DNA of 59,253 nt from a virus. Lineage: Duplodnaviria > Caudoviricetes. A model generated the notes under the pieces. The model searched no databases, was not told the origin of the DNA, and was given only the letters and a program-made list of their open reading frames with translations. Of this stretch, positions 15,776 to 49,539 are shown in pieces; the first letter of the stretch is position 1; the number at the start of each line of letters is the position of its first letter. A program made the translations under genes and the position numbers. The DNA lies in IMG/VR virus record IMGVR_UViG_3300025889_000131, positions 1 to 59,253 of that record. The stretch is one strand, 5' to 3'.

Positions 15776-17146
15776 TTACATCAGGTTCTTAACAGTAACA
15801 ATACGGTAGTAAATGTTGCTGTTTGCAGCGCTAACTACACCGTTTGCAGCAGTTGTTGCGAACGGATTGGCAACCAGACCATAACGAGTCTTGAAGCCAA
15901 TTTTCGGCTGAAACGTCTGTTCCCCGATAGCGCGAGCCATCTGCAGAGGCACGTATGGGCAGTAGAACAGACCAGCGTCGTAAGGTGAAGAACCTTTGTA
16001 GCCGATCGTGTAGTACTCGTTACCTGAAGCAGACGCGAAGTAAGGATCAATATAAACCTTGATCTTACCGAACAGAACGCCGGCAAACGTGTTGCCTGTG
16101 TCGTCTGTTTGCAGGTTGCTTGACAGAGCAGGGCTGTAGTCCAGAAGACCAGCAGCGTTCAACGCAGTAGCTACGTCGGAACCACAGATCAGGACGTTAC
16201 CCTTACCGCGACGAGTCGACTTAGAGATCTGGTTGGCATCGCGGTCGATCTGAACCATCAGGCCCTTAAATCGTTCCACAGACCAACGTCCGTTAGAGTC
16301 AACGTCGAGGTCAAAAGTACCAGCATTCTGAGTGTTCAGCTGAGCACCCGCAGTAGCAGTACCGTTGATTGCGCGAATAACTTCACGGTTGATTTCCGCC
16401 AGAATTTCAGCAGAAAGAATGTTGCTGAGTTCTGTTTCCGCGTCCAGTCCGTGAACCGCTTTCAGATCCTGTGCAAGTTCGGTTGAGTATTCAGCCTTCA
16501 GTGCACGAGTTTCAGCAGTTACGGTAACCTTCTCGATTGAGAACGCCATTTCCTGGAAGTAGTTGTCAGCTGCATCGCCGAGAGATTCAGCAATGGCAGT
16601 TGTCATACCACCTGGGAAGCCGTAGTTAGCTCCTGTCGGATCAGAACCGTAAGTTGTCGACAGCTGCGAGTTAGCTGTGACGTAAGCTGTGTTACCAGCC
16701 ATGATAGCAGAGAAGCCAACGTTCGCTTCGTTGTAAAGCGCTTCTTTACCAGACTGGTTAGTATAACGCGGACGGATAGCAAAGATCAAGCCCGTCGGAC
16801 CTGACATTGGCTGAACGCCGGCAACGTCATACGAAATTAGGTTCGGCATAGAACGACGAACCAGTGAGATAAGTACCGGGTCAAAAATATCGACGGCACC
16901 ATCGCCAGCAGTCGAGCTGGATGCACCCATTGAGTTGTTTGGCGCAGCTTCCGACAGAAGCCCCGTACCAGACGCAAGAGCACGTTCCGTACGTGAGAAC
17001 TTTTCCTGGTTTTCTAGCATTTGAGCAACAATGTTCTTTTTGTACGTTCCCTTGATCGGCTCAAGGTCTTCGTGCTCAAGGACAGGCTGCCACTTTTTTA
17101 CCAGATGATCAGCAAAGCTCTCATTGAAAAATTCTGGATTCAACAT
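15776..17146 (-). CDS. gp23: Major capsid protein gp23
   Basis: KW.P.LE, ENQ, LSE|A cleavage site, DPVLISLVRR, GVQPM.GPTGLIFA, R.LKAEY, FYCPYVPL, FQPKIGFKTRYG. Confidence 0.99.
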   Translation of the reverse strand: MLNPEFFNESFADHLVKKWQPVLEHEDLEPIKGTYKKNIVAQMLENQEKFSRTERALASGTGLLSEAAPNNSMGASSSTAGDGAVDIFDPVLISLVRRSMPNLISYDVAGVQPMSGPTGLIFAIRPRYTNQSGKEALYNEANVGFSAIMAGNTAYVTANSQLSTTYGSDPTGANYGFPGGMTTAIAESLGDAADNYFQEMAFSIEKVTVTAETRALKAEYSTELAQDLKAVHGLDAETELSNILSAEILAEINREVIRAINGTATAGAQLNTQNAGTFDLDVDSNGRWSVERFKGLMVQIDRDANQISKSTRRGKGNVLICGSDVATALNAAGLLDYSPALSSNLQTDDTGNTFAGVLFGKIKVYIDPYFASASGNEYYTIGYKGSSPYDAGLFYCPYVPLQMARAIGEQTFQPKIGFKTRYGLVANPFATTAANGVVSAANSNIYYRIVTVKNLM

Positions 17147-17166
17147 AACTTTATAACTCCTTATTC

Positions 17167-18363
17167 TTATTCTTTACGAGCTGAGCGGCCAATTGCATTG
17201 ACGTATGCACTCATTGCGCCCGTTGGTGTTGTTACTTCTTCTTCAATCGGTCCTTCATAATCCAGTTCTTCGTTGAGTGAACCGATTTCACTATCTGAAT
17301 TATCAAAATAACTTTCTTTGATAGTTTCAAGTTTTTCTCGGTAGCTGTCTGAATCTTCAAATGCTACAGCTTCTGCGAGATCTTTAAATTTAGCAGCATC
17401 CGTATCAGTCAAATCTTCTGACAGTTCTTCAAAAATGTCTTCTTTTTCTCCATCCTTTACTTGTTTGCGAGCTTCAACAAGCTTGTTGTGTGTTTCATCA
17501 AGTTGAGCCTGAAGATCTTCAGTGTGTGCAACAAGTTCTTCCACAATGTCGACTTTATCTTCAGGAATTTCAACGTAATGCTCGACAAACAGATTCTTTA
17601 GACCACCAAGGAAGTTTTCAACCATTTCCTGGCGAATACCTCTTTCAATGGCGACCTTATTTTCTTCAACGTATTCAGCAGCAATATACTCGAGATATTC
17701 GTCGAGCTTTTCTGCCAGGTCATTGTAGATTTCTTCTTTTGCTTCAGCAAGTTCTGCTTCTTGTTCAGCAGCAATGTTTTCAAGAATTTGATTGACCTTG
17801 GAAACAACAGCTGCTTCAAAGATTGTAGTTGCTTTGTCTTTAAATTCTTCCGTTAGGTCTGATTCGTTTTTGAAGATAGCATTCAGATCTTCTTCAAGAT
17901 TAATATCTTCGGCCGAAACTGAGCGAACGGTATATTTTTCTTCGTTGATTTCTTTACCATCTTCTTCAGTATATTCTTTCTGAAGAGCGGCAAGCAAACT
18001 ATCAAAAGAAGAAACAAGAGAGCTACGATCCATGCTCTGCATCTTTTCGACCATGGCATTGATAACGCCAACCTTTGTCTTAACTTTTTGAGGAGCTTTA
18101 TCTCCATTGCGCTTATCACCACGACGTGGCTTTGTTTGACCTTTAACTGGATCAGGAGCCATTGAAGGATCACCCATAGAAGCGTCAACTTCGTCTAGGT
18201 CATCATCTTCTTCGTCCTCATCATCGTCGTCATCAGATGAATGAGCCTTGTCGTCTTCTTCATCGTCATATTCCTCAGTCTTTTTGCCTTCCTCGAGTTC
18301 TTCTTCATCGAGGAATTCGTCTTCCATTTCTAATTCTTCTTCGTTAAGACGATCTGTTGACAT
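17167..18363 (-). CDS. gp22: Prohead core scaffold gp22
   Basis: Very acidic; LTEEFK.KA.TIFEAAV, YLEY..EY..EN, F...V.IPE.KVD, M.AY. Confidence 0.93.
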   Translation of the reverse strand: MSTDRLNEEELEMEDEFLDEEELEEGKKTEEYDDEEDDKAHSSDDDDDEDEEDDDLDEVDASMGDPSMAPDPVKGQTKPRRGDKRNGDKAPQKVKTKVGVINAMVEKMQSMDRSSLVSSFDSLLAALQKEYTEEDGKEINEEKYTVRSVSAEDINLEEDLNAIFKNESDLTEEFKDKATTIFEAAVVSKVNQILENIAAEQEAELAEAKEEIYNDLAEKLDEYLEYIAAEYVEENKVAIERGIRQEMVENFLGGLKNLFVEHYVEIPEDKVDIVEELVAHTEDLQAQLDETHNKLVEARKQVKDGEKEDIFEELSEDLTDTDAAKFKDLAEAVAFEDSDSYREKLETIKESYFDNSDSEIGSLNEELDYEGPIEEEVTTPTGAMSAYVNAIGRSARKE

Positions 18364-18399
18364 CTTGAATCTCCTTGTTTATAAAGATTATCTTCATAT

Positions 18400-18407
18400 T
18401 ATTTATA
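18400..18407 (-). promoter_or_regulatory. Late promoter TATAAATA upstream of gp22
   Basis: Exact match, intergenic. Confidence 0.88.
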
Positions 18408-18433
18408 AATTTCATTTCTCTAAGAACTATTTC

Positions 18434-19081
18434 TTAAAGGTTATTGATGAAATCCTCAAATGCTTGCATTTTTACTTCAGCAAGGTTTCTTTTACTTGCT
18501 TTTTTGACTTTGTTTTTGACCTTTTCAGATAGCCAAATCTTACGTTCTGTATCGTAATACCATTCCACTCCTTCCATTACACCTTCAACGAAGGCATTAG
18601 GAGCAGAAGGATCAGCAACAATATCACCCGCTGTTGCAAGTTGAAAATCTTTTTGTACTTCAGCAACGCCACGGTTATTTTTAAGTGTACCCATTCCACG
18701 TGAGGAAACACCAAGCTGACATTCTTCATCGATAAGATTTTTAACAATCTTACCCATCGGTGTATCCATAATTTTGGCTTTCCCGATGAAGTTGTTGCCT
18801 TCTTGTTTCAACTCAACGATTTTATGTGATACGCGATGCAGATTGATAACAGGTCCATCTGGGTGACCGAGTTCTCCGTAAGCCTTATTCTTGTTTACGC
18901 TTTCTTTGACATAACGATTGCATTCGTTTGCAAGAACATCTACTGGATACACACGTCCGTTTCTGTTCTTGATACCACCCTGCATAAAGATACCTTTGAT
19001 ATAGTAGTCTTTACCAGCGGTACCTTCTTTAGCCTCTGTGAGAATTTCTACATCTTCGATTGTTTCAGTGATTAGCTTCAT
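18434..19081 (-). CDS. gp21: Prohead protease gp21
   Basis: MKLITE, NRNGRVY, GELGHP, GVSSRGMG, DIVADPSAPNA. Confidence 0.97.
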   Translation of the reverse strand: MKLITETIEDVEILTEAKEGTAGKDYYIKGIFMQGGIKNRNGRVYPVDVLANECNRYVKESVNKNKAYGELGHPDGPVINLHRVSHKIVELKQEGNNFIGKAKIMDTPMGKIVKNLIDEECQLGVSSRGMGTLKNNRGVAEVQKDFQLATAGDIVADPSAPNAFVEGVMEGVEWYYDTERKIWLSEKVKNKVKKASKRNLAEVKMQAFEDFINNL

Positions 19082-19440
19082 GAAACAGAACCTTTCTTGT
19101 GAATCTTAAGTAATAGATTTCCGGTTCCATTAGCAAGAGTAAATACAACGTTTGCTGTACGGTCTCCAGTAGAAACTTCTATAGGTGTTCCTTCAAGTTG
19201 GAAATCAATACTTCCAGTTTGACCATAACACGTCCAAACAGTATTTGCACCACGAGCAATTGCCCATGAAGCATTATTTGATACATTCGACCAAATGGCT
19301 TTGGAGATAACCATTTCCGAAACAGTTTCTCCAGCGGCATTTGCTGGGTTTGTTCCACCGTTCAGATTAAGATATCCAGAAGCATCTGTACGAATTACAA
19401 TATAACCGCGTTTCTGATTTGATGTTGTCTGCTGAGCCAT
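19078..19440 (-). CDS. Hypothetical head-cluster protein (possible decoration protein)
   Basis: Beta-rich, Asn/Thr/Gly-rich; GGAG RBS; coupled to gp21. Confidence 0.65.
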   Translation of the reverse strand: MAQQTTSNQKRGYIVIRTDASGYLNLNGGTNPANAAGETVSEMVISKAIWSNVSNNASWAIARGANTVWTCYGQTGSIDFQLEGTPIEVSTGDRTANVVFTLANGTGNLLLKIHKKGSVS

Positions 19441-19450
19441 GTATTACTCC

Positions 19451-20080
19451 TTAAGAAGCAGAATCAGCGAAGTTCAGCATCTTCATAAATTCTGATTTAC
19501 CTTTACCAAGATTAGCCGCAAACTTTTTAGCATTAGCTGGTTTGAGTGCTTCATAAACATTCATAAGAATACTTGCTGATTTCTTATCGACACTCATCGA
19601 ACTTCCATTCTTGAATGTAATCTTTTGCTTTGACCCAGAAGAAACAATTTTCTTAAGTGTATCAATGACGTTGACTTCTTCCGTAATAAGTGTTTCTGCC
19701 GATTCCAGATTTTCTTCTTTGACTCCTTGAGCCTTTGTTGCATTACGATTTGCAGCCGTTTTAGACTGCTTCATATTTAGTTTTTTCATAAAGTTTGAAA
19801 TCTTTGGAGAACTACCCTGCTGATTGGGTTTGTGTTCACCTCCAGTAACTTTACGGTTTGGATCAACACTATCGTTGGAATTGACCGTACCTTTGAACTG
19901 ACTTCTTTCAGCATTAGGATGTTCGTTTTTCTCAACCTCATGCTTCTTTTTAAGTTCTTTTTCTTTTTTAGAAGAAGTTTCTTCTCCTTTGCCTTCATCG
20001 TCCGTTTGTTTGTTCGGAGTCAGATCATCAGCAGGAGAATTTCCTTTTGCTTCTGAAAATAGTTCACTGAAGGTTTTCAT
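19451..20080 (-). CDS. Prohead core protein gp68-like
   Basis: MKTFSELFSE start at 20080; Lys-rich; C-terminal I.F.NG....VD...A..L..VY..L...N...F pattern; position between gp67 and gp21. Confidence 0.65.
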   Translation of the reverse strand: MKTFSELFSEAKGNSPADDLTPNKQTDDEGKGEETSSKKEKELKKKHEVEKNEHPNAERSQFKGTVNSNDSVDPNRKVTGGEHKPNQQGSSPKISNFMKKLNMKQSKTAANRNATKAQGVKEENLESAETLITEEVNVIDTLKKIVSSGSKQKITFKNGSSMSVDKKSASILMNVYEALKPANAKKFAANLGKGKSEFMKMLNFADSAS

Positions 20081-20084
20081 TTGT

Positions 20085-20261
20085 TTAGTCCTCTGATTCT
20101 TCTTCGTTTGTAGATTCATCAAACAAAGATTGACCAATTTCAACGCGTTTTAGATCAACATATTCTTTAGCGTGATCATGAATTTTGTTTTCCACACCTC
20201 GCTTGAAATCATTAGTGCGACCTGCTACAAGATGGTCAATAAGTTCTCGGGAATTAGACAT
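20085..20261 (-). CDS. gp67: Prohead core protein gp67-like (58 aa; below ORF-track cutoff)
   Basis: MSNSRELIDHLVAGRTNDFKRGVENKIHDHAKEYVDLKRVEIGQSLFDESTNEEESED; follows a late promoter and GGAG RBS. Confidence 0.75.
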   Translation of the reverse strand: MSNSRELIDHLVAGRTNDFKRGVENKIHDHAKEYVDLKRVEIGQSLFDESTNEEESED

Positions 20262-22668: not shown

Positions 22669-22671
22669 TTT

Positions 22672-24489: not shown

Positions 24490-25041
24490 TTAGGAACCTC
24501 CAGCGTTTCCTGTGACACCACCAATAACTTTCCAGTAATCATAGACGAATGTGCACTGGAATTCTTCGACTGTATCTCCACCTTCCCAATTCAGTTCAAT
24601 TGGTGAAATGGTCTGTGGGAACATTCCTATAAATTGATACGTACGAAGAGCAGTACCATCTTTACCGAAGTGAGTTACTGTTGCTTGTGATTTGTACTGA
24701 ACCTGAGAAGAACTTCCGGTTGTTCGAAGGTTGCCCTCAAAGCTGTTGATCGCATTTGACCATTCTTCAAGTGCATTTCGAATAGCGAAGTCTTCGTCAT
24801 TGAGAATTGTTACTTCCCATTCGGCGAATGTTCTGTTACCAGCAAGTTTGATTTCGCGACCAAAGTATTTTACTGGAATAACTCCAAGTTCTGCTCCTGG
24901 AATAGCAGCGGCTCGACAAAGTAGAGGTACTTTAACATCTGCAGTTCCATTGATAGGATTCTGAATCTCTACCTGGAAGAGAGAATTGCGAGCACCGCCA
25001 GCGGCAAGTCCTGCTGAAAACTCGTTAACATTGAAAGACAT
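24490..25041 (-). CDS. gp19: Tail tube gp19
   Basis: GGAR..LF.V, GR.IKLAGNRTF..W..T..NDEDF.IR...E.W. Confidence 0.96.
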   Translation of the reverse strand: MSFNVNEFSAGLAAGGARNSLFQVEIQNPINGTADVKVPLLCRAAAIPGAELGVIPVKYFGREIKLAGNRTFAEWEVTILNDEDFAIRNALEEWSNAINSFEGNLRTTGSSSQVQYKSQATVTHFGKDGTALRTYQFIGMFPQTISPIELNWEGGDTVEEFQCTFVYDYWKVIGGVTGNAGGS

Positions 25042-25059: not shown

Positions 25060-27006
25060 TTAGAACGAGCCAACTACTTCAGTGAATTCAACGCCAGTGC
25101 GGACTCCAATAAAGTTCAGTTTAATGAAGTTGATTGAACGTGTCGGTTTGATGTAAATATCACAGACAAATTCGTTTCTGTCAATTACTTCGCCTGTATT
25201 ATTTGTTCCGTCACAAACAACTACAAAGTCCGTAATACCTCTGCGTCCCTGTACGTCGCGCAAGAACGGTTCTACAAGATTGCGGAACTGAGTTCTTGTT
25301 GTGTCGTCATTCTGTTCAAACAACGTGAAGTTAGCTGCAAGTTCAATTGCTTTTTCAAGTGTAATAAACAGACGACGTACGTTGATTCGATCAAAGGCAC
25401 TTGGATTAGACAACATTGTCTTATCTCCAAGAAGAACAGTTCCCTGGCCAGCCTCTGAAACAACGGGATTGATTCCGTTTTTGTAAAGCTGATCACGATG
25501 TGACTTTTTAGGATTGTATGCAAGACGCTTAACGTTCTTGATGTTTCCTCTATTGTAGCCAGCAGGTGAGAACCATGGATCTCTAACCGCATCTGTACGA
25601 ACCATTAGGCCGCCAATATCTCCGTTTAGAGGTATGTAACGATCGACATCATTGTACTTATCGTACTGCAATTTCCAACCACTGTCCATGACTGCGTATG
25701 AAGTTGACGGCAGCAGATTGCGATATGTGATAATATCGTCCATTTGAGCTGTTTCGTACGCGTCATTTCCAACAACATCTGCTTGTCTCGGTGAGATACA
25801 TGCTACACAGTCCTTGCGAACTTCGGCAATGTTATTGATAATATGTAATGCACGAGTCTGATTTGCACCAGCACCAAGCAAGATAGAAACGTCAATTTCT
25901 TTCTTATCGTTGAATTTATCCCATCCAGTATTGTAATTAGAGTCAGAAGGTGTTACACCATCTTTACCCCAAACAAAACTTGTCGTATCTGGAGTTGCAG
26001 GACCAGTGAATGTAAATGAAGCCTTCGATCCGAAATTTGTTGTCCCAGAAGGATGACCTGTCCACCAAGCCCATTCAGATCTACGATTGATTGCATCTTT
26101 ATAGTAATTTGTTGATCCGTCAGGTGCTTTTGCATCAGATGCAGCAGACAGCCCTTCGAAGATTTCAAGAATTTCACCACGTGTTCCTGTGATTTCGCCA
26201 TCCTCGTCGACGATAGCAAGGTGAAGTTCATCACCACTACCACCAACTGTATTAGCATAATCTGTAGTTCCGGGTGCTTTCTTGACGTAATCGTAGTATT
26301 CCCAGCGGCGTTCAATACTTGCAGATCCACTTGTGTGATTTGAGTTTGAAGAAGCAGCCGCAGTCGTGTTACCAGTATACTTACTTGATAGTATCAAATA
26401 CGTTGCGTTTGTAACAGCGGATACTTTAACAACTTCTTTATCTTGACCAGCAACAAGCAAGTCACCAGATACAAGTTCATTGGCAAAATCAGTACCCAAC
26501 CCAGTTACGACAGTACTGTTAGAAGTAAAAGTCAAGTTACCAGAAAGAGTACTTGAATAAGCATTACCAGTCAAGCATAATGAATACTTGAGAGAATTAC
26601 CAAGTTCTCCTGGATACTTAGCAACAAGAGGACCAACACCAGAAATTCCAGAGCTGTAATTGTCGTCGTAATCGTTATCTGATTTGATTAATGTTTTTAC
26701 AGTATTGGCAGACGCCGTAATAGCATTTTGAGCATTTGCGCCACTTTCCTCAACTACACGGACAGTATATAACTGATTTCCATAAGCTAGGAAGTTAGCT
26801 CCAGTGAAGAAATCAACATATGTATTAGCATTCGGTTCGCGAAATGTATTTACCAATCCATTTTCATCAGAAATCAAAATTGGTTTCTGAACCGGACCCC
26901 AACGAAAGTGCCCAACCAATGCTCCTGTACTAGTAGAAACATTTGGAACTGACGTTGTAAGATCGCGTTCGCTGATTGTGATGCCTGGAGAAACCTGCAG
27001 AGCCAT
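25060..27006 (-). CDS. gp18: Tail sheath gp18
   Basis: SPGI...E.D, F.WGP, PWFSPAG.NRG, SAFDRINVRRLF, IKP.RSINFI.LNF. Confidence 0.98.
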   Translation of the reverse strand: MALQVSPGITISERDLTTSVPNVSTSTGALVGHFRWGPVQKPILISDENGLVNTFREPNANTYVDFFTGANFLAYGNQLYTVRVVEESGANAQNAITASANTVKTLIKSDNDYDDNYSSGISGVGPLVAKYPGELGNSLKYSLCLTGNAYSSTLSGNLTFTSNSTVVTGLGTDFANELVSGDLLVAGQDKEVVKVSAVTNATYLILSSKYTGNTTAAASSNSNHTSGSASIERRWEYYDYVKKAPGTTDYANTVGGSGDELHLAIVDEDGEITGTRGEILEIFEGLSAASDAKAPDGSTNYYKDAINRRSEWAWWTGHPSGTTNFGSKASFTFTGPATPDTTSFVWGKDGVTPSDSNYNTGWDKFNDKKEIDVSILLGAGANQTRALHIINNIAEVRKDCVACISPRQADVVGNDAYETAQMDDIITYRNLLPSTSYAVMDSGWKLQYDKYNDVDRYIPLNGDIGGLMVRTDAVRDPWFSPAGYNRGNIKNVKRLAYNPKKSHRDQLYKNGINPVVSEAGQGTVLLGDKTMLSNPSAFDRINVRRLFITLEKAIELAANFTLFEQNDDTTRTQFRNLVEPFLRDVQGRRGITDFVVVCDGTNNTGEVIDRNEFVCDIYIKPTRSINFIKLNFIGVRTGVEFTEVVGSF

Positions 27007-29245: not shown

Positions 29246-30090
29246 TATGTGTCACTCCCAGTTTCAGGATTATATTTCAATCCATCAGTGAAGAAAAATA
29301 GATCATCCGCAAATCCATAATCACTATTAGCAGAAATTTGTGAGATCGCAATAGATGCAGATGAATTGGTTGTTGGTGCTCCATTCGCAAGCAATCCAGG
29401 AGTTGCAATAATACGAGAATTGCGAGCACTTCCAACAATATTATTAGCATGAAAGTCAATTTGTGCTCTCTTAATAGTCTTTCCTGTAGTAACAGGTCCA
29501 AATACATATCCGCGAATTGTAAAGTTTAGATTCCAAATTAATGATCGTCTTGTAATAAAATCACCTTCATACGTGTCTTCAATATTGATGTCATTAAGAA
29601 TAATTGGTGTATCAAATGTAAGACTCATTTCAGGAATCATTCTTACAGCCGTTGTAAATTCTGGACGAAAGTAAGGAATGATCTGTTCTACAATTTGTGC
29701 AGCATCATCAGCGTTTTTGGTAAAAATAGACAAAACAATCTGAATGTCATAGGGAACTGGAACATATTGTGTTTTCAAAATTCCAGTATCGGAACTAGAA
29801 ATCGTTTTATTCTTGAGAGTACTTGAAAGCTTTCTTCGCCCATCATATGTCATTCCAGTAATCTCAAATCCAATTCTTGGAACCTGAACCATTACATCCT
29901 TTTCCAGATTTGGATCTGCTCCAATGCGTGCTAAGAATGACTCTTTTGGTCCATAAGCTATAGGAACAGAAATAGACTGAACGCGGTTTCCACTGCTGTC
30001 TAATCTCTGCACTACGATATCATTGAAAAGATTTCCAAATGCAATGATGTATTTGCGAATACTCTGATGATAAAACTGATCTCCAAACAT
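29245..30090 (-). CDS. gp15: Tail sheath stabiliser/terminator gp15
   Basis: MFG..FYH..IRKY...FG.LFN, VP.AYGPK, QI.EQI.PYF.P. Confidence 0.95.
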   Translation of the reverse strand: MFGDQFYHQSIRKYIIAFGNLFNDIVVQRLDSSGNRVQSISVPIAYGPKESFLARIGADPNLEKDVMVQVPRIGFEITGMTYDGRRKLSSTLKNKTISSSDTGILKTQYVPVPYDIQIVLSIFTKNADDAAQIVEQIIPYFRPEFTTAVRMIPEMSLTFDTPIILNDINIEDTYEGDFITRRSLIWNLNFTIRGYVFGPVTTGKTIKRAQIDFHANNIVGSARNSRIIATPGLLANGAPTTNSSASIAISQISANSDYGFADDLFFFTDGLKYNPETGSDT

Positions 30091-30941
30091 TAGTATCTAT
30101 CCCTTTCAGAGAATGGATTCTGTTCACTGAAATCAATAATATTGTCAGCTTCAGTTTGGAAGAATTCGTTGTTAGCAGATGCATCTGTATCTTCAATTCT
30201 GTATTCCTGAATAATAGAGTCTCCATCTTCAGCAAGAAGCTGATCACCTTCTTCCGTAAGCAATTCGTAAACCAAAATATCATTGCTGTAGGTTGTATCA
30301 ATAGCATCAATTTCTGTGTTTCCAGTTGCAAAATCTTCGCTGCTGTATTTGAACAATTCACAACGAAGTTCATACATTTGCACGCGCCCAAGTTGATAAA
30401 ACGGAATTTCGTGTTCAACGTGTTTAATTTCGAAGATCTTACCATTTAATGGGAAGTAAATAAGATCACCCTCAAGTGGTCTTTCAGAACTTATAGAGTA
30501 ATCGTCGTATCCTTCAAGTACAAATGAAGCAGTATTGCCACTTCCAGAAGAAATAAATTGTCTACTTGGAGTAGTTGTACTTCCACTTTCAAGTATTAGA
30601 TTGAAACCACTCTCTGTCATAAGTTTCTCAGAACGAATCTGCTCAAATCTTTTCTTTGCAATGACCAATGTCATTTCATCTCGAATTTCTAAATTGAATC
30701 GAGATAGAAAATCACCCTCTCCCTCAAATCCTTCTACGTTTTTCACATATACTTCAAGGGCGGCTGCAACATTGAATGTAGATAGTGTGTCTTCTCCAAA
30801 TAGATTATCCTCACGAACAAGAGTACGAGGCAGATACTTAGCATCAATACCATGACTCTTAATAGATTCAATCACGAGATCTTCTATAAGATCCTGTTCT
30901 CTTGAATATGTTGAATGAGGAAAAAATGGATTTACTGACAC
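30090..30941 (-). CDS. gp14: Neck protein gp14
   Basis: NPFF, EQ.L.EDL..ESI...G, YLPR, P.EGDLIYFP, FEI..VEHE.PFYQLG, DFSE.NPF. Confidence 0.93.
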   Translation of the reverse strand: MSVNPFFPHSTYSREQDLIEDLVIESIKSHGIDAKYLPRTLVREDNLFGEDTLSTFNVAAALEVYVKNVEGFEGEGDFLSRFNLEIRDEMTLVIAKKRFEQIRSEKLMTESGFNLILESGSTTTPSRQFISSGSGNTASFVLEGYDDYSISSERPLEGDLIYFPLNGKIFEIKHVEHEIPFYQLGRVQMYELRCELFKYSSEDFATGNTEIDAIDTTYSNDILVYELLTEEGDQLLAEDGDSIIQEYRIEDTDASANNEFFQTEADNIIDFSEQNPFSERDRY

Positions 30942-34557: not shown

Positions 34558-35349
34558 TTACCTACTGTCAATTGATGATTCAATTCCGCGCCAAACAGTT
34601 CCGTTATTTCTTGTAAGAAATACTAAGATATCTGTTTGACCTGATGTTAGTGTTGGCGCAGTTTGTGCAGCCCATTTAACATTCGTCGGCCAAGTAATAG
34701 TATGATCTCCTGCACCATCCATTTCAAGAATAAATCCGCATGCATTTCCAGAAACAGCTGAATTGGCAAAAGAATAAGTTACATCTGCATCAATAGTATG
34801 ATAGAAATAATTACCAGCATTCAAGTTAAGTGTAATAGAACCAGCAGTATTACCTAGATTTACTCCAGTAACTCCATGCCCCTTGAGCATTCCGTTTTCA
34901 ATTGCGTTGTTACCAAAGTTTACATCTCCAGTAAATGTTCCACCAGACAGAGGAATATATGTAGCAGAAGCATTTGCAACTTGAAGTCTATCTGCAATAG
35001 CAAGATTTGTATTTGCAAGATTACTTTGAATCCAAGAATTTGTATTTGCAAGATTACTTTGAATCCAAGAATTTGTATTAGAGAGAACTGATTGTAATTG
35101 TGTGTTAGTTGCAATACGAGCACCACCAACAGTAAATGTTCCAGTTACAGATGTATTTTGACCAGAAAATGTTGCATTTGCACTAACATTAGCAGTACCC
35201 TTTACGGAAAGAATTGAAAGAGTACCATGATTGAGACCTGTCGTATTGGCAAATAAACTAAGTTCATCTGCAAGCAAGTTATGATCAGTTCTCAACTGAC
35301 CGATTGTATTTGCTGTAGTTACTGTATTAAATTTTGATCCGACTGCCAT
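34558..35349 (-). CDS. Short fibre shaft protein B
   Basis: N-terminal NT...R...N anchor-like motif, 11-aa repeats, GGTFTG, C-terminal TWP..VKWA....PTL...DIL.F.T.N.GT domain. Confidence 0.7.
   Translation of the reverse strand: MAVGSKFNTVTTANTIGQLRTDHNLLADELSLFANTTGLNHGTLSILSVKGTANVSANATFSGQNTSVTGTFTVGGARIATNTQLQSVLSNTNSWIQSNLANTNSWIQSNLANTNLAIADRLQVANASATYIPLSGGTFTGDVNFGNNAIENGMLKGHGVTGVNLGNTAGSITLNLNAGNYFYHTIDADVTYSFANSAVSGNACGFILEMDGAGDHTITWPTNVKWAAQTAPTLTSGQTDILVFLTRNNGTVWRGIESSIDSR
35005..35079. repeat. Perfect 33-bp tandem repeat (2.3 copies) encoding SWIQSNLANTN
   Basis: atttgtatttgcaagattactttgaatccaaga at 35005 and 35038, partial copy at 35071. Confidence 0.92.
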
Positions 35350-35375: not shown

Positions 35376-36272
35376 TTAAGCGCGCCAATCTAAACCAAGA
35401 ATTCCTCCAGCGCCTGTTCCACCTGTTCCTGCACCTGATCCTGTTCCACCGCCACCGCCGCCGCCACCGCCGCCGGCAACAGAATTCTGTCCATCCAATT
35501 TTTTTCCGCCGCGTGTACCAAAGTTAATACCACCTGCTCCGCCACCGCCGCCGCCATAGAAATCTCCGGTTGGAGATCCACCATTAGCCTTAGCTACTGG
35601 AACAATACCTGTAGTATCAGATGGATTACCACTGGTTGCTGCAGATCCACCTGTTCCTGAACTATCCCCTGAACCATTACCACCAGGAGCCCCAGGCGTG
35701 GCCGGGCTGTTGTCACCATATCCACCTCCACCGCCGCCTCCATTTGGAGAAATACCAGGAGAACCTCCACCAAAGCGCCCACCTCCTGAGCCGCCATTTC
35801 CACCTGCTGTACCGTCACCTCCAGAACCACCAGCTCCACCTGTAATTAAATTAGTGTCAGAACCAGCATTCAAACGAAAGACGTCAGACGAAAGACTGTC
35901 TTGAATATAAGTATCTTCTCCTGCACCACCAACAACCATTGTATATTCTTCACCAGGAGTTACAGTAATATTAAATGCTTCTCCGAAATCAGAAAGAATA
36001 TGTTCGCCGCCACCACCGCCACCTCCACCGCCATTACTTACGGAGTTTGCAGAACCGGTTCCGCCGCCAGCAGAACCAAAGACATAAATTTTAGTTGTCT
36101 TAGATCCAGGTGTAAGTTTGTAGCTGCCAGGTTTTGTAAGAAGCAATGCATCGTCAATAAGGTCATATGTCCCATTATAATTTGTTCCACCAGATACACT
36201 GATAGGTTCAATCGCTACTTCATATGGACTGATAGCAGAGTTAACCCTGCGCATAACTCTACCAATTTGCAT
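35376..36272 (-). CDS. Glycine-rich adhesin-like protein
   Basis: Many poly-Gly tracts, as in phage glycine-rich receptor-binding tips; coupled to the upstream fibre gene. Confidence 0.7.
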   Translation of the reverse strand: MQIGRVMRRVNSAISPYEVAIEPISVSGGTNYNGTYDLIDDALLLTKPGSYKLTPGSKTTKIYVFGSAGGGTGSANSVSNGGGGGGGGGEHILSDFGEAFNITVTPGEEYTMVVGGAGEDTYIQDSLSSDVFRLNAGSDTNLITGGAGGSGGDGTAGGNGGSGGGRFGGGSPGISPNGGGGGGGYGDNSPATPGAPGGNGSGDSSGTGGSAATSGNPSDTTGIVPVAKANGGSPTGDFYGGGGGGAGGINFGTRGGKKLDGQNSVAGGGGGGGGGGTGSGAGTGGTGAGGILGLDWRA

Positions 36273-44102: not shown

Positions 44103-45641
44103 TTAGAATGTAAAGACGAGTTTGAAGTTTTCATCTTGATCACGCGCGCGTGAAATAGCTTGTCTATTTTCTATATATATGACTTCACCTGAGTATGGTT
44201 TAAGATCAGCGGCAGTAATACTGTCAATAATGCCGTTAGCTCCTGAACTTGTAACTGTTTCACCTGTGGAAAAAGCAATATTAGAAGAGACAAGTACTAC
44301 ATGCAAATTGCCTGCAGTATTCGATGAATTTGTATTTGAAAAACGAACAATTCGACCAGTAGCCCCTGAAGTTTCTCCAGTAACAACACTATCAAGTACA
44401 AATGAACCACTTGAACTTACAGAGCTAAGATTGAGTTTTGTTGTTTGTGATACAGTTGTTGTAGTACAAAGAGATCCGTTTGCCCATTTCGGGTTAAGAA
44501 TCAATCCAAATCGACGATAGTCATTGACGATTGGAAGTGTATTTGCTTCATCTCTTTCAAGCGTAACATTAAACATGAGATTCTTGCCGTTAAGCTCTTG
44601 TACTGGATTAGAACCATGTCCTCCGTTTTGGGGAATGTATGCTGTGGCAACTGCACCGGATCCACTATTAGCTGTAATTACAACATTAGCTGTTGAATAA
44701 TCAGATCCTTCGTTGATAATATTCACATATGAAATTGCTCCAGCAACCACGTTTGAATATGCTGTTGCTCCTGTTCCGTCTCCATAAATTGTTACCTTTG
44801 GAGAAATAAGATATGCAGAAGACGTATTTGGAAGTGATGTGAATGCAGCATTAACAGTTGCTGTTCGTGTGGATCCAACATAGTTAATAATTTCTCTTTG
44901 CTGACCAGATCCAGCACTACCTGTGATACGAAGAACACTTCCGTTGTAAATATCATCTGTACCAGACGCATTTGATCTAAGTACAAGAGTGGTTGAATTT
45001 GAAACCGCATTGAAACCAAGAGTATTGGACGTAAACACATATCCAGATCCTCCGGTCGTCACATCGATAACTTGAATAGATCCATTAACTGCGGCCTGCT
45101 GTACATCCCATTGAAGAGAACTATCATCTGCTGTAAGTGTTTTTACTGGGATATAATTCGTAGAAACAAAATCTGTAATGTCATCAGAAGAAAGTGAATA
45201 CATGAATTTCCATTTGTATCCATCGGCAGTTGTGAGAACAGATGTACTTGTTCCTGTTGGTTCTACTGTTGAATTCGCTCCACTATTATTGAATAAACAC
45301 TTATAAACATTGTTTGCACTTGAAAGAACGAAGTATTGAGAAGAAAAAATGTTTGTATCTGTGTGATCATATTCGGTAAAAAGAGTATTATTTGACCAGT
45401 TGTATCTATTTGTTGCTAAAGAAATACCACCAGGAATAATTCTCTTAAGACCGAACATATCTCTCCAAACATCATAGTCAACATTGCCGACGTAATTTGA
45501 TTGTGCTGGAACTGACTGTTCGTTTGCCCAAGGCTCAATTCTTCCAATGAAGAGATATAGATAATCATCTTCACTATCAAGTGCTGCTTTAAACTTTTTA
45601 GCAGTTTCGATGCTGAAATTGTATGTTACGATTCCTGACAT
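44103..45641 (-). CDS. gp8: Baseplate wedge gp8
   Basis: YLFIGR..PW, VYKCL.N, DGY.WK.MY, GHG.NP..EL, Y.ENR..I.R..DQ.E..K.V..F. Confidence 0.93.
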   Translation of the reverse strand: MSGIVTYNFSIETAKKFKAALDSEDDYLYLFIGRIEPWANEQSVPAQSNYVGNVDYDVWRDMFGLKRIIPGGISLATNRYNWSNNTLFTEYDHTDTNIFSSQYFVLSSANNVYKCLFNNSGANSTVEPTGTSTSVLTTADGYKWKFMYSLSSDDITDFVSTNYIPVKTLTADDSSLQWDVQQAAVNGSIQVIDVTTGGSGYVFTSNTLGFNAVSNSTTLVLRSNASGTDDIYNGSVLRITGSAGSGQQREIINYVGSTRTATVNAAFTSLPNTSSAYLISPKVTIYGDGTGATAYSNVVAGAISYVNIINEGSDYSTANVVITANSGSGAVATAYIPQNGGHGSNPVQELNGKNLMFNVTLERDEANTLPIVNDYRRFGLILNPKWANGSLCTTTTVSQTTKLNLSSVSSSGSFVLDSVVTGETSGATGRIVRFSNTNSSNTAGNLHVVLVSSNIAFSTGETVTSSGANGIIDSITAADLKPYSGEVIYIENRQAISRARDQDENFKLVFTF

Positions 45642-45663
45642 TTTCTCTCTTTCGGCTACAAAT

Positions 45664-45671
45664 TATTTATA
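45664..45671 (-). promoter_or_regulatory. Late promoter TATAAATA upstream of gp8
   Basis: Exact match, intergenic. Confidence 0.88.
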
Positions 45672-45673
45672 AG

Positions 45674-47668
45674 CTAATTATAGATGATATCGATTAAAGA
45701 ATAATATTGTCCGTTAGAAACATAAGAAGTTTCACTATTTCCGGCATATGAAGGATCAATTCTCATTGACTCTGCTCCGTAAACAGTAATGGCTCTAACG
45801 TCAGTATTTCCAAGTGGTGTTGGAGCAGAAATAGCATTATCCGTTTGAATAAGGATAGAAGTATTTCCTGGAACAATTGCGCTTGAATTGTTGAAGAAAG
45901 TATTGTTTCCGTATAGCAAACTATCCGTTCCAACATAAAGCATTGGTGTATTTGAGAAACGGTTTAGCATATATGGATCTGTCTCCCAGAAACTCAATGA
46001 TGTAGTATTTGCAACAAAGACTCCACCAACTCCAAGTACCCACGCTGTATTTGGTTGTTCAATTGTTTCTCCAACGGTCACAGAAGAAGCTGTTGACTCA
46101 GAAGTAATAAGTTTAGTGCCAAACCTTTTGAAACCAGCTGGATGAAGTAGATCGTTCACGGCCTGTCTATACTCTCGTGTATTCATAGTACTTTTAATAA
46201 CATAAGAGTAATCTTGATAGTAATCATTATCTTGTAACTTCATATTACTTGACAAGAATCCACGAGTATCAGTATATCCGCCTTCTCCAATAATAAATCC
46301 AGAAGTAACTGTCGTTCCAATAGCATTTACTGTTCTAAGTGTATTATTTACTGTATTTGCTCTACTTGAATCGTTTGCCGCTGATTGGTTGTAAATTTGT
46401 GCTGATCTATCACGAGTATAAAGAGACCCCTGTTCGTTTATAGCAATTGTACTAATGGATCCGGGAGCATGTGCCACAGAAATAACAGCGTTATTTCCAA
46501 GTCCGTTTAGTTGTAATTCAGCTACATTCTCCTGAGTAACAATAACAGATGGAAGTATAGAGTATCCAGTCCCAAAATTGGTAATGTAAATTCCAGTAAT
46601 TGCACCAACACTTATATTACTAAATACAAGAGAAGATTGAAGAGTACTATTGACATTTGCTGTTTGTAAATTTGCACTTCCGTTAACAGTATTGCCACCA
46701 GCACCACCAAATGCTGTATTACTATTGATGTTTAGTGGAACATGAGAAAAGTTATTGATAGTATCTGTGTTGATCGATACAACACCAGAATTAGATACAC
46801 TTGAAATATAGAAGCTTGCACCAGTACCAGAACCACCGGCAATAGTGATTGATGCATTTGTAGTATATCCATTTCCTCCATCTTCAATAGCAAAAACTAC
46901 TGCTTCTGTATCAGATGTTGTGAGAACATATCCGTTAGCACCGGAACCAGTGCCATGATCTGAGAATGTAATATGATCTCCAACTCTATGATAAGCTCCA
47001 CCAAAAGTAATATCAAGATTAGCAAGAGGACCAGTTCCGGTATAGATTGTTCCAGAAAAATCAGAATCGGAAGTACTAATAACTTCATCATTTTTAAATG
47101 TACCATTGATACGCGACAGATTATAATTGAACACCTCAATACCAAATTCTCTCGTAGCAGAAATTGATTCTACACGCGCCTGCGCACCAGACTCTCTACC
47201 AAGTATTGTTTGTCCGCCCTGTGCATATGCATTACCAGAAGTAACATTTACACGAATATACTGATCTTTTTCCCAGACACCATCACTCACACGAAGTATA
47301 TTGTCTGCTGGATAGTAAATATCAATTTCTTCATTATACAATGCTCTAAACAGAAGCTTGTATGATTCTTTAGATCCTTTTGCTCTATAAAGATCAAGAA
47401 CATTTTTTATGAAAGTACGTTCGTTTGCACTAATTGATTTTGGAACATTGACGAGATATTCTCTTTTAAACCAATCAAGATATTCACTCGTTGTATTATC
47501 AATGTCTGTATAGTTCAAAAGATTTTTAGATCTTTCAATAACTTTACCATCTTGCTCAATAGATTCATAATAAGCTTTGACAAATTTCACAAGCAAAGGC
47601 CCTTCTTGTTTGATAAAAGAAGGGAACTGATCCTCAATAAGAACAGATATTTTTTTGTTAGTAGACAT
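45674..47668 (-). CDS. gp7: Baseplate wedge initiator gp7
   Basis: QFP.F, F.KAYY, Y.AKG...SY.LLFR.LY, SDG.W, LQD..YYQ.YSY..KS, HPAG...FG. Confidence 0.88.
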   Translation of the reverse strand: MSTNKKISVLIEDQFPSFIKQEGPLLVKFVKAYYESIEQDGKVIERSKNLLNYTDIDNTTSEYLDWFKREYLVNVPKSISANERTFIKNVLDLYRAKGSKESYKLLFRALYNEEIDIYYPADNILRVSDGVWEKDQYIRVNVTSGNAYAQGGQTILGRESGAQARVESISATREFGIEVFNYNLSRINGTFKNDEVISTSDSDFSGTIYTGTGPLANLDITFGGAYHRVGDHITFSDHGTGSGANGYVLTTSDTEAVVFAIEDGGNGYTTNASITIAGGSGTGASFYISSVSNSGVVSINTDTINNFSHVPLNINSNTAFGGAGGNTVNGSANLQTANVNSTLQSSLVFSNISVGAITGIYITNFGTGYSILPSVIVTQENVAELQLNGLGNNAVISVAHAPGSISTIAINEQGSLYTRDRSAQIYNQSAANDSSRANTVNNTLRTVNAIGTTVTSGFIIGEGGYTDTRGFLSSNMKLQDNDYYQDYSYVIKSTMNTREYRQAVNDLLHPAGFKRFGTKLITSESTASSVTVGETIEQPNTAWVLGVGGVFVANTTSLSFWETDPYMLNRFSNTPMLYVGTDSLLYGNNTFFNNSSAIVPGNTSILIQTDNAISAPTPLGNTDVRAITVYGAESMRIDPSYAGNSETSYVSNGQYYSLIDIIYN

Positions 47669-49539
47669 TATGCTTTATATACTGTTACACCAGTTTCGTT
47701 ACTTCCAGTCGTCAGTGTTGAACCCTGTGTAGTAACTGTTGAAACGCCAAAGTTTGTCGAAGTTCTTTCATCAATCATCGTAATTTTTGTATCACTGAAA
47801 AGAAGTAATTCGTTTGTTTCTGCTCTCACATCTTCTGTTTTTGGTGATACATAAAGACTGATAAAGGATCCAAAATATGCTGTTGGTCTGAAACTGTTGA
47901 TTTTTACGATTCCCTGAGCATAATCAATTGTGCCGATATTATCATCAAGATAAATTCTCTGAGATCCTTTAGCATAATAAATTCTAACAGTTCCTTCTCC
48001 ATCATCATCAAAAAATGCTGTTTTGCCTTCATATGTAAAGGAGCTTGAAGAAAGCGTTCCTGGAATTCCATCTTCAATATGAGCATGCCTTTGTTCAAGA
48101 GAATTATTAAAGTTCAGTGTATATGTAAATGTAGCTGACAGAATTGGAGTAAATCTTTTCTCGAGACCAATGGTTGTAATATTTCCAAGTATAGATGCAT
48201 CCGTATCATCAATTTTTCTAGTAAAACTGGAGTATCTAAATAAATTATTATCAAATGTTCCGAGTTTACTTGTTTCAAACGAAGTAATTGAGTTTTCTAC
48301 TTTTTCTCTAAGTGCACTTGCCGACAATACTGTAAGATCACTGTCATATTTAACAGTAATCGTTGGATTGATATAAAGATATGTTGCGTCCACAAATTCT
48401 GTTTCTACACCAACAATACTGTATTGTTTAAGATGATTTTTGATAACATTTTTTCTTTGATCTGATAAAAATAGAGCAGTAGATGGTTTTGCTGCTATAA
48501 AGACACGACCTGGAGTAGAGGGAATATTATTCTCTCCACCCCAAGCACGCAGGCTGCTAATTTCTGGAAAGTCTCTTTTAATAATGCGCTCATAGTCTTT
48601 TGCATTAACGGCGCGATTCTGTGTCTGATAGTTACGAGGTGCACTGAATTTAATGCTTTCAATTGTCTCTGTATTTGCACCACCTTCAGCTGCTGTTTGG
48701 ACAGTAAAGCTATAATTTGAATATCCTCCTAGTGTAGAAGGACCAGAGAATGTATTTGCACCATTAAGATCACTTCCGTGACAGACACGATATCCAATGA
48801 TAACAATGTTGCCATTATCCAATTCTTGTCCAAGAACATCATCACCGAAGATCAATTCATATTCTTCATTCTCGTTTTCTTGCAGGAAGTAAATTTTACT
48901 GTTAGCATAAACATTGCGTAAATCTGTAGCTCTCGTAAATGTTCTTGTGGTACTATTAGAAGAACTAGTTTGTACTTCTACAGTAAGAGATGTTGTATCA
49001 ACATTCTTGTTTGGAATATTAAATCTTTGATTGGTACTGTTCACGTCAACAGTATAACGATGAGTCAGCGGTTCACCTTCTACAATATTCAAGTTAGCAC
49101 TGTATGTATTACTTGAAGGAAGAATAGTATAAGATTGAGGAGTTACAAATTTATAAGTAATTCCGTCAACATCACTTGTGAATACTGTATTCTTATCAAC
49201 TGTGATAGATGCAGGAGAATCATTTGGAACTACTGTTACTTGAACAACCGCGGTAGCTCCACGAGCAGAAGTTGGTGTGTATCCAAGCGCTTTTGCTTTA
49301 CTGACAACATTATTGCGAATCTGAGCAGAGTCAAGAAAAGATTCATTGGTTGCCATATTTATATAAATGGCATTCATATAAGTATTATAAGCAAGCATAT
49401 CAATGAGGTTAGCCATAGCTGAACCTTCAAAGTCATGATCGCTGAAATCGCCGACAGAACTGATGTAGTTCTTAATGTTATTACGAATAGTCGTAAAATT
49501 AAGAGATGTTACGTTCAGAACATTATTGGAAAGAGCCAT
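47668..49539 (-). CDS. gp6: Baseplate wedge gp6
   Basis: D.DFEGS....L.D.LAYNT, ESFLDSA..R..VVS.AK.LGY.P, FGD...G, QNRAV...DY. Confidence 0.96.
   Translation of the reverse strand: MALSNNVLNVTSLNFTTIRNNIKNYISSVGDFSDHDFEGSAMANLIDMLAYNTYMNAIYINMATNESFLDSAQIRNNVVSKAKALGYTPTSARGATAVVQVTVVPNDSPASITVDKNTVFTSDVDGITYKFVTPQSYTILPSSNTYSANLNIVEGEPLTHRYTVDVNSTNQRFNIPNKNVDTTSLTVEVQTSSSNSTTRTFTRATDLRNVYANSKIYFLQENENEEYELIFGDDVLGQELDNGNIVIIGYRVCHGSDLNGANTFSGPSTLGGYSNYSFTVQTAAEGGANTETIESIKFSAPRNYQTQNRAVNAKDYERIIKRDFPEISSLRAWGGENNIPSTPGRVFIAAKPSTALFLSDQRKNVIKNHLKQYSIVGVETEFVDATYLYINPTITVKYDSDLTVLSASALREKVENSITSFETSKLGTFDNNLFRYSSFTRKIDDTDASILGNITTIGLEKRFTPILSATFTYTLNFNNSLEQRHAHIEDGIPGTLSSSSFTYEGKTAFFDDDGEGTVRIYYAKGSQRIYLDDNIGTIDYAQGIVKINSFRPTAYFGSFISLYVSPKTEDVRAETNELLLFSDTKITMIDERTSTNFGVSTVTTQGSTLTTGSNETGVTVYKA

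Follow-up and report, generated by a model that had tools for sequence, protein, structure and literature searches.

The DNA analysed here, to which we refer as the window, is a contig of 59,253 bases that represents part of the genome of a marine T4-like myovirus. Our subject is a short word, a small residue followed by Asn and by Thr or Ser ([ASG]N[TS]), which recurs in the virion proteins encoded in the window, together with a gene for a putative glycosyltransferase that may be connected with it. Replication and recombination genes lie at positions 2-15642. A contiguous block of virion genes on the minus strand, identified through PHROGs and Pfam matches, includes gp23, gp22, gp21, portal, tube, sheath, terminase, gp13-15, fibres, a protein of 2208 amino acids (aa) with a DUF4815 match, gp8, gp7, gp6 and gp25, and then hub and inner-tail proteins. 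By nucleotide sequence the closest cultured phages are the Methylophilales phages Melnitz (~68% identity across gp23-gp21). By sheath protein the closest are Ochrobactrum phage OC, the pelagimyophages Mosig and HTVC008M and Stenotrophomonas phage DLP6, with 48-50% identity.

A preliminary description of this DNA held that tripeptides of the form [A/S/G]-N-T/S recur in outward-facing virion proteins of unrelated fold. The observation is borne out. All of the example strings given there are present in the sequences, the hand counts were nearly right (17 copies of [ASG]N[TS] in the 324-aa fibre, where about 16 had been counted, and 22 in the 2208-aa protein, where more than 15 had been counted), and what recurs is an ordered, Asn-specific word. 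In the 24 open reading frames (ORFs) of 15776-49539, which form our test set, there are 101 copies, and about 37 are expected from each protein's own composition (observed/expected ratio, O/E, 2.75). Local shuffling in windows of 10, 15, 20, 30 and 50 residues yields means of 38.7-42.8 (z 9.3-10.4). When the two repeat-bearing fibres are removed, 77 copies are left against 33.4-37.5 under local shuffles (z 6.7-7.7). The enrichment thus persists in shuffled controls, and shuffles of whole proteins and of 10-50-residue windows rule out composition and local low complexity as its cause.

Since a motif class chosen by eye is not to be trusted, all 8000 tripeptides and all 400 dipeptides were ranked. 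ANT is the most over-represented tripeptide (32 vs 5.43 expected, Poisson p 6e-15), and it keeps the first rank after removal of the fibres (21 vs 4.53, p 1.6e-8, or ~1e-4 corrected for 8000 tests); the tripeptides ranking after it are GAN, SNT, SAN, ANS and TAN. AN is first among dipeptides (118 vs 57.8) and NT second (114 vs 75.0). This ranking disposes of post-hoc motif choice as an explanation. GN is at chance (71 vs 71.5, 0.99), and NS stands at 0.87, so that Ser at +1 is weak; [ASG]NT accounts for 73 of the 101 copies. When x-N-T is pooled over the window and two cultured phages discussed below, Cr30 and phiM12, it is raised 4.5-fold for Ala, 3.7-fold for Ser and 2.2-fold for Gly, and at most 1.3-fold for the other 17 residues. 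Of the residue class originally described, Ala and Ser at -1 and Thr at +1 hold up, and Gly at -1 and Ser at +1 are weak. The core of the motif is narrowed to [A/S/(G)]-N-T(/S).

The word is specific in its order, in its residues and in its reading frame. There is no excess in the 24 proteins of the reversed motif [TS]N[ASG] (32 vs 36.6) or of the Asp version [ASG]D[TS] (27 vs 27.2; AD[TS] 6 vs 7.9), and the canonical sequon N-x-S/T (x not Pro) is not enriched (150 vs 142.1, z 0.8). The corresponding DNA word GCN-AAY-ACN occurs 32 times in frame 0 (5.7 expected), one and three times in frames +1 and +2 and three times in antisense. Since its excess is confined to frame 0 and the Ala and Asn codons within AN follow general codon usage, the signal acts on protein and not on DNA, and a DNA-level word or mutational bias is ruled out. 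The spread of homologous modules between proteins is ruled out too, as BLASTP links just the two fibres. The flanks common to the window, Cr30 and phiM12 have Thr or Ser at -2 and Ala or Thr at +2 and are depleted of charged residues from -5 to +6; the residues enriched after the Thr of the motif are Ala, Thr and Val, and the flanking stretches as a whole are uncharged and rich in beta-branched residues. A few Gly-containing words are also mildly raised in the virion proteins of 15776-49539, namely SG (113 vs 81.6), TG (110 vs 84.5), SSG, SGA and SGT.

Table 1. Positions in the window of the motif-bearing virion genes and of the candidate enzyme gene (motif counts are observed vs expected copies of [ASG]N[TS] unless another word is named)
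Feature	Position	Strand	Observation
Soluble GT-A glycosyltransferase (predicted), 279 aa, candidate enzyme	1988..2827	-	profile hits, fold model, DxD motif
Major capsid protein gp23	15776..17146	-	4 vs 1.3, marginal
Virion structural protein, 411 aa	20308..21543	-	5 vs 0.96
Collagen-like protein, 374 aa	21544..22668	-	C-terminal domain holds [10 protein letters not shown]
Tail sheath gp18	25060..27006	-	7 vs 2.1, all in residues 60-251
Neck protein gp14	30090..30941	-	2 vs 0.4, weak
DUF4376 protein, 210 aa	31877..32509	-	2 ANT vs 0.07
Fibre, 263 aa, paralogue of the 324-aa fibre	34558..35349	-	7 vs 2.1
Fibre, 324 aa	36272..37246	-	17 vs 2.6, mostly in tandem repeat
Giant tail protein, DUF4815/VrlC-like, 2208 aa	37467..44093	-	22 vs 8.8; AN 30 vs 12.3
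Baseplate wedge gp8	44103..45641	-	7 vs 3.0
Baseplate wedge gp7-like	45674..47668	-	9 vs 3.4
Baseplate wedge gp6	47668..49539	-	5 vs 2.6, not significant singly

The excess is not spread evenly over the particle (Table 1). It is significant in single proteins for both fibres, the 2208-aa protein, the sheath, gp7 and the 411-aa virion protein, and marginal for gp8 and gp23 (p 0.03, uncorrected, for the latter); for gp6 and for the LamG protein it is not significant singly. The virion-wide scope of the original claim consequently holds for tail, baseplate, fibres and the 411-aa protein, and head proteins add little to it. That the motif would be rare in replication enzymes and internal proteins agrees with the counts. 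No enrichment is seen in 21 replication-side proteins (7 vs ~5.5) or in 15 internal and inner-tail virion proteins (5 vs 7.0, a hand sum), a set that comprises scaffold, protease, tube and its paralogues, portal, gp25, hub, tube cap, tape-measure-like protein and end protector. AN is depleted fourfold (3 vs 11.5, z -2.6) in the hub and inner-baseplate ORFs that follow from 49539 on, which could be accidental or could mean that proteins inside the particle avoid the word. Orthologues of the giant tail protein are enriched in DLP6 (22 vs 5.3), phiM12 (14 vs 5.9) and two marine contigs, G005 (17 vs 7.3) and G006 (16 vs 6.8). The same is true of the collagen-like protein, which has PF01391 repeats in three stretches and lies within the head/neck gene block: its orthologues have 14 vs 2.6 copies in G006 and 4 vs 0.5 in a third contig, G007.

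The fibres require separate treatment. They are homologous, they contain tandem repeats, and 24 of the 101 motif copies lie in them. In the 324-aa fibre the repeat SNTVxxxGANTNFxG places the motif at spacings of 7 and 13 residues, and it is kept in six homologues. In the 263-aa paralogue the 11-residue unit NSWIQSNLANT is repeated in tandem almost exactly, with two full copies and the beginning of another. An AlphaFold2 (AF2) model of the 324-aa fibre, which is of low confidence (predicted local distance difference test, pLDDT, 57; predicted template-modelling score, pTM, 0.36), has strands of 3-5 residues every 6-7 residues at positions 50-127, and each junction from turn to strand carries the motif; a sequence search of the PDB with this fibre gave nothing useful. 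No internal repeats or shared modules were detected by BLAST in the sheath, gp6-8, the giant protein or the 411-aa protein. An explanation through a beta-solenoid or fibre-shaft repeat fits the 324-aa fibre and its paralogue only, and not the non-fibrous proteins. Between the two fibre genes, at 35376-36272 on the minus strand, lies a gene for a 298-aa protein with 32% glycine and no PHROG or Pfam match. Poly-glycine adhesins occur at T-even fibre tips, and this protein may be one.

The motif is not a general feature of T4-type virion proteins. The 25 virion proteins of T4 itself are at chance (21 vs 22.9, O/E 0.92). No excess is found in Melnitz (O/E 1.10-1.14), HTVC008M (1.02), Mosig (0.93) or P-HM2 (0.77), nor in the whole genomes of the cyanophage ACG-2014f (0.86) and of a complete 164-kb uncultured relative, here called G001 (1.13). 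Because T4, Melnitz, HTVC008M, Mosig, P-HM2 and G001 have orthologues of the same fold that lack the motif, it is not a property of the folds.

Other T4-like phages share the signal. O/E is 3.03 in Caulobacter phage Cr30 (79/26.1; ANT 20/4.0), 2.01 in Sinorhizobium phage phiM12 (54/26.9), 1.71 in Rhizobium phage RHph_I1_18 (37/21.6; ANT 18/4.6) and 2.71 in the baseplate region of DLP6 (44/16.2; ANT 20/3.5), the head-neck part of which stands at 1.53. Marine contigs behave similarly, with 2.0-3.3 for L003-L007, L030 and L031, 2.04-2.48 for those homologues of window virion proteins that are encoded by G005-G008, and 1.6-2.1 for the L034/L037/L039 group (L034 1.71). Phage OC has only 1.20 (ANT 7 vs 3.1), and in pelagiphage HTVC023P ANT alone is raised (16 vs 6.0). 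In the whole genome of Cr30 a significant excess is confined to the sheath, baseplate wedge proteins, two large tail proteins and fibres, the rest being at ~0.98; the non-virion ORFs of G005 are at 0.90. The leading x-N-y words of Cr30 (SNT, ANT, GNT) and phiM12 (ANT) match those of the window, and those of HTVC008M and G001 are unrelated to them. In the 40-75 kb region of HTVC008M (L085-L092) the leading words are TNK, ANV and GNL, with 15 copies each vs 2.4-3.0 expected, which probably come from a repeat protein. The enriched phages are from sea, pond, soil and sewage, and the unenriched ones also include the marine habitat.

To see where on a structure the copies fall, 20 sheath orthologues were aligned over the same fold, nine from enriched and nine from other lineages. 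The former have 5-11 motifs each (expected 1.3-3.1) and the latter 0-2 (expected 1.3-2.2). In T4 gp18, domains I and II are described as solution-exposed and domain IV as lining the interior (PMC3004832). By T4 gp18 equivalents, the 56 motifs of the nine enriched sheaths are distributed as 21 in domain I, 25 in domain II, 10 in domain III and none in domain IV; the window sheath follows the same pattern, with sites in I, II and III and none in the interior domain. Corrected for composition, enriched lineages have 46 vs 14.3 copies in domains I and II (3.2-fold) and 10 vs 8.1 in III and IV, and unenriched lineages have 5 vs 10.3 and 4 vs 7.0. The outward-facing location that had been supposed from reading the proteins is in this way supported for the sheath, 46 of 56 motifs being in the equivalents of exposed domains.

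If sites are clustered with a tolerance of 5 alignment columns, 11 of the 21 clusters occur in one enriched lineage and 10 are common to two or more, so that it would be too strong to say that all sheath sites are at non-homologous positions. The site GN[SA] at column 248 is conserved nearly everywhere, unenriched lineages included, and is probably structural. Shared loops may carry the word in shifted register: after a conserved VVR the sequences read TANT, VVSNT, AADANS, ETTNANT or RGSNT. The argument is limited by alignment uncertainty in the variable domains. That some of the motif sites are confined to single lineages is what a selected tag would lead one to expect, and the sheath pattern fits selection for a word on exposed loops better than an inherited structural element.

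What might read such a word? Our candidate is the product of ORF 1988-2827, which lies outside the positions covered by the preliminary description and was not noticed there. Its Pfam hits to families of the GT-A fold are sub-threshold (Glyco_transf_21, Anp1 and Glycos_transf_2, E 0.017-0.078), and they fall below the curated cut-offs (15.0 bits against 21.7 for Glyco_transf_21, 13.4 against 23.3 for Glycos_transf_2). The PHROG match is to phrog_34859, 'glycosyltransferase' (1.4e-4), and a sequence search of the PDB gave nothing useful. The AF2 model (pLDDT 75) has as its best Foldseek match the GT-A protein A197 of Sulfolobus turreted icosahedral virus (STIV; PDB 2c0n, E 2e-8, template-modelling scores 0.46/0.64), followed by ppGalNAc-transferases, the collagen glycosyltransferases LH3 and COLGALT1 and other GT-A enzymes. 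It matches 195 PDB chains at E <= 0.001, and among the matches listed 37 of 37 are glycosyltransferases. All 19 of the 19 aligned homologues keep E225-D226 and also D82-x-D84, the DxD metal/nucleotide-sugar motif, which comes after a beta-strand in this Rossmann-like fold; FIDADI or FIDSDI is present in 8 of 8 phage homologues, and there is no hydrophobic segment. More than 8000 metagenomic homologues exist, the best 120 of which are 63-100% identical. On the evidence of the model and of the conserved residues, this protein is predicted to be a soluble GT-A glycosyltransferase with a DxD motif; for brevity we call it GT-A.

Orthologues of GT-A (45-74% identity) occur in Cr30, phiM12 and its relatives, DLP6, RHph_I1_18, OC, the L034 contig (G003) and G005-G008. 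This covers all 11 of the enriched genomes and contigs that were examined, plus OC. Melnitz, G001, Mosig, P-HM2 and T4 lack the orthologue, and HTVC008M is not among the 64 tblastn hits. The seven GT-A-positive lineages (O/E 1.20-3.03) all lie above the seven negative ones (0.77-1.14), and no enriched lineage without the gene was seen among the phages compared. The proposed correlation of motif density with glycosyltransferase genes is accordingly found, with OC as its exception, and the distribution fits an enzyme that is necessary, not sufficient.

Among the accessory genes of the window that were tested, GT-A alone matches the distribution of the motif. The only glycosyltransferase of the window recognized at Pfam level is a TET-associated glycosyltransferase (TAGT, PF20691) at 4634-5509. 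It is not the candidate, because its gene is part of a cluster for hypermodification of DNA cytosine and is missing from Cr30, phiM12, OC, HTVC008M and G001; ORFs of 217 aa and 143 aa are absent from the same five and were likewise rejected as co-distributed genes. The gene for GT-A retains its position in phages that have no TAGT cluster. The cluster itself (3438-8105, minus strand) contains, besides the TAGT gene, the product of which has the PHROG label 'beta-glucosyl-HMC-alpha-glucosyltransferase', a C5-methyltransferase-like ORF (399 aa), a 167-aa ORF of unknown function, a dCMP deaminase, a thymidylate-synthase-like ORF, a DUF1599 gene and a MazG-like PRA-PH gene. No TET/JBP dioxygenase was recognized in it.

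GT-A may have a partner. Whole-genome comparison gives six ORFs of Cr30 that are common to phiM12 and missing in HTVC008M, G001 and ACG-2014f, and one of them encodes a glycosyltransferase of the GT-B fold (PF00534). This GT-B co-occurs with GT-A in Cr30, phiM12, DLP6, OC and G005. In HTVC023P it directly adjoins a distant homologue of GT-A, an arrangement which suggests that the two work together. In G005 (45820-54877 of the contig, L185) GT-B, Capsule_synth (PF05159), a GDP-mannose 4,6-dehydratase and a PhyH dioxygenase are encoded within 9 kb, a stretch that would amount to a small sugar-making toolkit. Distant homologues of GT-A do not predict the motif: HTVC023P has only ANT raised, and the Synechococcus phage ACG-2014f, without enrichment, has a homologue of ~30% identity. 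The latter lies inside a tail-fibre module (215176-221844, L050), with genes for a '26-residue repeat surface protein', a further glycosyltransferase and an epimerase of nucleotide sugars beside it, and ACG-2014f may use another word or another target.

Our tentative reading of the motif, which we hold to be plausible, is that [A/S/(G)]-Asn-Thr(/Ser) is a candidate glycosylation tag on virion proteins. We infer that an enzyme reads the word, that this enzyme is the glycosyltransferase described above and that a sugar becomes attached. In a clade of T4-like phages, selection would keep a short linear tag on the solution-exposed faces of the tail sheath, the baseplate wedge, the giant tail protein and the fibres, usually with Thr or Ser before it and Ala, Thr or Val after it, in an uncharged, beta-rich stretch. 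Soluble phage glycosyltransferases, GT-A and, in complete relatives, the GT-B partner being the candidates, would add the sugar at the tag in the cytoplasm, before or during assembly, and the outcome would be a sugar coat on the tail exterior. The sugar could be borne by Asn, as in the N-T-x-T sites of chloroviruses, or by the adjacent Thr/Ser, as in the D-[S/T]-[A/I/L/V/M/T] sites of Bacteroidota; in the former case the linkage may be an N-linkage to Asn outside the universal N-x-S/T rule.

By analogy, the nearest precedent would be the N-glycosylation of chlorovirus capsids. Capsid glycans of chloroviruses are made by virus-encoded cytoplasmic glycosyltransferases. These viruses have Ala, Ser or Gly before the Asn of glycosylated sites, a requirement that for the present word is measured, and they encode a GDP-mannose 4,6-dehydratase, as does G005. 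The N-glycans of the capsid protein Vp54 are carried by Asn in 302-NTGT, in 399-NTET, in 406-NTAT and in NIPG, none of them N-x-S/T (PMC9614988; PMC5408694). Common to both cases are an Asn directly before Thr (here NT is at 114 vs 75 expected), the departure from the N-x-S/T rule and the outer face of the virion. They differ in scale and in setting, since chloroviruses have four sites on one capsid protein of a eukaryotic giant virus and there are ~100 sites here on bacteriophage tail proteins. In chloroviruses the linkage of beta-glucose to Asn is shown chemically; in the phages a glycan is predicted from sequence.

Other systems are alike in fewer respects. Freeman and colleagues are said to have described, in 2023, mycobacteriophages (Che8 type) whose virions are decorated by phage-encoded glycosyltransferases. 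The modification is reportedly O-linked; in these siphophages it is placed on C-terminal extensions of the capsid and tail-tube subunits and follows no short sequon scattered over the proteins. The likeness is that phage glycosyltransferases are thought to modify the phage's own virion proteins; the enzymes are unrelated as far as seen, no mycobacteriophage being among the 64 records with a GT-A match. The O-glycosylation motif of Bacteroidota is given as (D)(S/T)(A/I/L/V/M/T) (PMC8550257). It resembles ours in being a three-residue word with an acidic or amide residue before Ser/Thr and a methyl-bearing one after it (here Ala, Thr and Val follow the Thr), and it differs in having Asp, not Asn, and in belonging to a periplasmic pathway of cells, not a cytoplasmic one of phages. 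A197 of STIV is, like GT-A, a small viral GT-A enzyme with a DxD motif, but the identity is 16% and the virus is archaeal. The capsid protein of STIV is glycosylated, and the substrate of A197 is also unproven. The HMW1C/NGT enzymes are GT-B in fold, not GT-A. They differ further in reading N-x-S/T, which is not enriched here. In Haemophilus and Actinobacillus these soluble enzymes are described as transferring hexose, in the cytoplasm, to Asn residues of surface proteins (PMC9614988).

Among alternative explanations, a purely structural motif survives best, and we regard it as unlikely yet serious. A small residue, Asn and Thr would here form a turn-to-strand cap in beta-rich outer domains and fibre shafts and be read by nothing. 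The position of the fibre motifs at modelled turn-to-strand junctions with regular spacing is what one would then expect, and so are the uncharged, beta-branched-rich flanks and the conservation of the column-248 sheath site in unenriched lineages. The fibre model, however, is of low confidence. The six unenriched phages have orthologues of the same fold at or below expectation (as seen in sheath domains I and II), half of the sheath site clusters are lineage-specific, and Asp is no substitute for Asn, although an Asx turn will as a rule tolerate either residue.

A second alternative, which we consider improbable, accepts an enzyme-read tag and assigns to it another modification (Asn hydroxylation, methylation, deamidation or a cross-link), or else takes the word for a docking site of a decoration or assembly factor. 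Evidence of selection on a word is indeed silent on its reader, and in G005 a PhyH dioxygenase gene is close to the sugar genes. Asn hydroxylation, which had been put forward alongside glycosylation, is nonetheless disfavoured, because the phages richest in annotated 2-oxoglutarate/Fe(II) (2OG-Fe(II)) oxygenase genes, HTVC008M (at least 5 2OG-Fe(II)/PhyH genes in the stretch covered) and Mosig (at least 8), are not enriched in the motif. No oxygenase, protein methyltransferase or transglutaminase was found in the window, and the one accessory gene that shares the distribution of the motif is GT-A.

Somewhat less probable still is a direct physical role of the unmodified word, such as hydration, weak binding of host polysaccharide or resistance to proteases or aggregation. 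The surface location would suit it, and there are other proteins in which arrays of Thr and Asn, set on a flat beta surface, bind water or sugars. Yet a bulk surface property does not need a strict order of residues or a small residue at -1, and the diversity of habitats of the enriched phages, together with the marine habitat shared by unenriched ones, speaks against it. Chance, composition or a repeat artefact, for which one could cite the repeat-bearing paralogous fibres and the choice of the motif class after reading the sequence, is very hard to believe when ANT leads all 8000 tripeptides without prior choice, with or without the fibres, and cultured phages independent of this one give the same result.

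A convergently maintained surface sequon, for which a candidate enzyme pair can be named, is then the best-supported reading. What had been proposed at the outset, a sequon acquired for modification, stands in so far as there is an ordered Asn-specific word on exposed surfaces with partly lineage-specific sites and a candidate enzyme, and it finds less support in the fibre copies. Several facts weigh against glycosylation at the tag, and we list them together. The 24 fibre copies belong, whatever else they are, to a structural repeat of regular period. The link between enzyme and motif is a clade-level correlation with about two independent contrasts, because the lineages are not independent on the sheath tree. 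In this tree, made by a quick method, P-HM2, Melnitz, HTVC008M and Mosig form one group and all positives with G001 the other (support by the Shimodaira-Hasegawa-like approximate likelihood ratio test, SH-aLRT, 86 and 90); DLP6 has also been grouped with phiM12 and Cr30 by portal protein (PMC5349666). The split of the two groups is one contrast, and G001, inside the positive group and without gene and motif, is the other. OC is discordant, having both enzymes and intact GT-A catalytic motifs at an O/E of only 1.20, and ACG-2014f has its distant homologue without motif enrichment. GT-B was not found within the 59 kb of the window, which is a partial genome. GT-A could instead act on DNA, on a lipid-linked glycan or on a host surface polymer, and its gene is one gene away from the hypermodification cluster. 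The second Thr of the chlorovirus N-T-x-T sites is not selected here, being present at 9 of 73 [ASG]NT sites, close to the Thr content (~10%). Finally, the literature consulted, supplements aside, yielded no description of T4-like phages with glycosylated virions or with an Asn-Thr word; the words 'glycos' and 'modification' do not occur in the phiM9 paper, and a marine phage proteomics paper mentions glycosylation just for animal viruses.

Some other genes of the window may be mentioned. Besides gp19 at 24490-25041 there are two additional tail tube paralogues (phrog_45) at 14436-14978 and 55808-56662, which are probably gp3- and gp54-like tube terminator and initiator. Two small ORFs, at 12005-12511 and 14989-15642, have strongly hydrophobic N-termini (Kyte-Doolittle >1.8 over 19 residues) and are probably membrane-anchored; one of them resembles a 'methylamine utilization' PHROG and the other a 'protease' PHROG.

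The broadest proposition that can be put forward is that a widespread clade of T4-like phages, including abundant marine phages and the laboratory phages Cr30, phiM12 and DLP6, sugar-coats its tail and baseplate at [A/S/G]-Asn-Thr by means of a conserved, soluble GT-A/GT-B pair. This would be the first sequon-directed glycosylation of bacteriophage virions and a bacterial-virus counterpart of the chlorovirus N-T sites; we regard it as possible and rather doubtful. Since Cr30, which infects Caulobacter crescentus, and phiM12, which infects Sinorhizobium meliloti, carry the same signal and both enzymes, the claim can be put to a direct test in harmless laboratory systems. If the tag is a sugar site, T4-like phages would be masking or adjusting the surface of their tails with a coat of glycans that they make themselves. 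This would bear on host recognition, on the stability and stickiness of phages in sea water and soil, on how antibodies view therapeutic phages and on electron cryo-microscopy (cryo-EM) maps with unexplained surface density, and it would provide a handle on the class of enzymes that glycosylates Asn-Thr sites in chloroviruses. Even if no group is attached, the motif is a clean case of clade-specific selection on a three-residue surface word.

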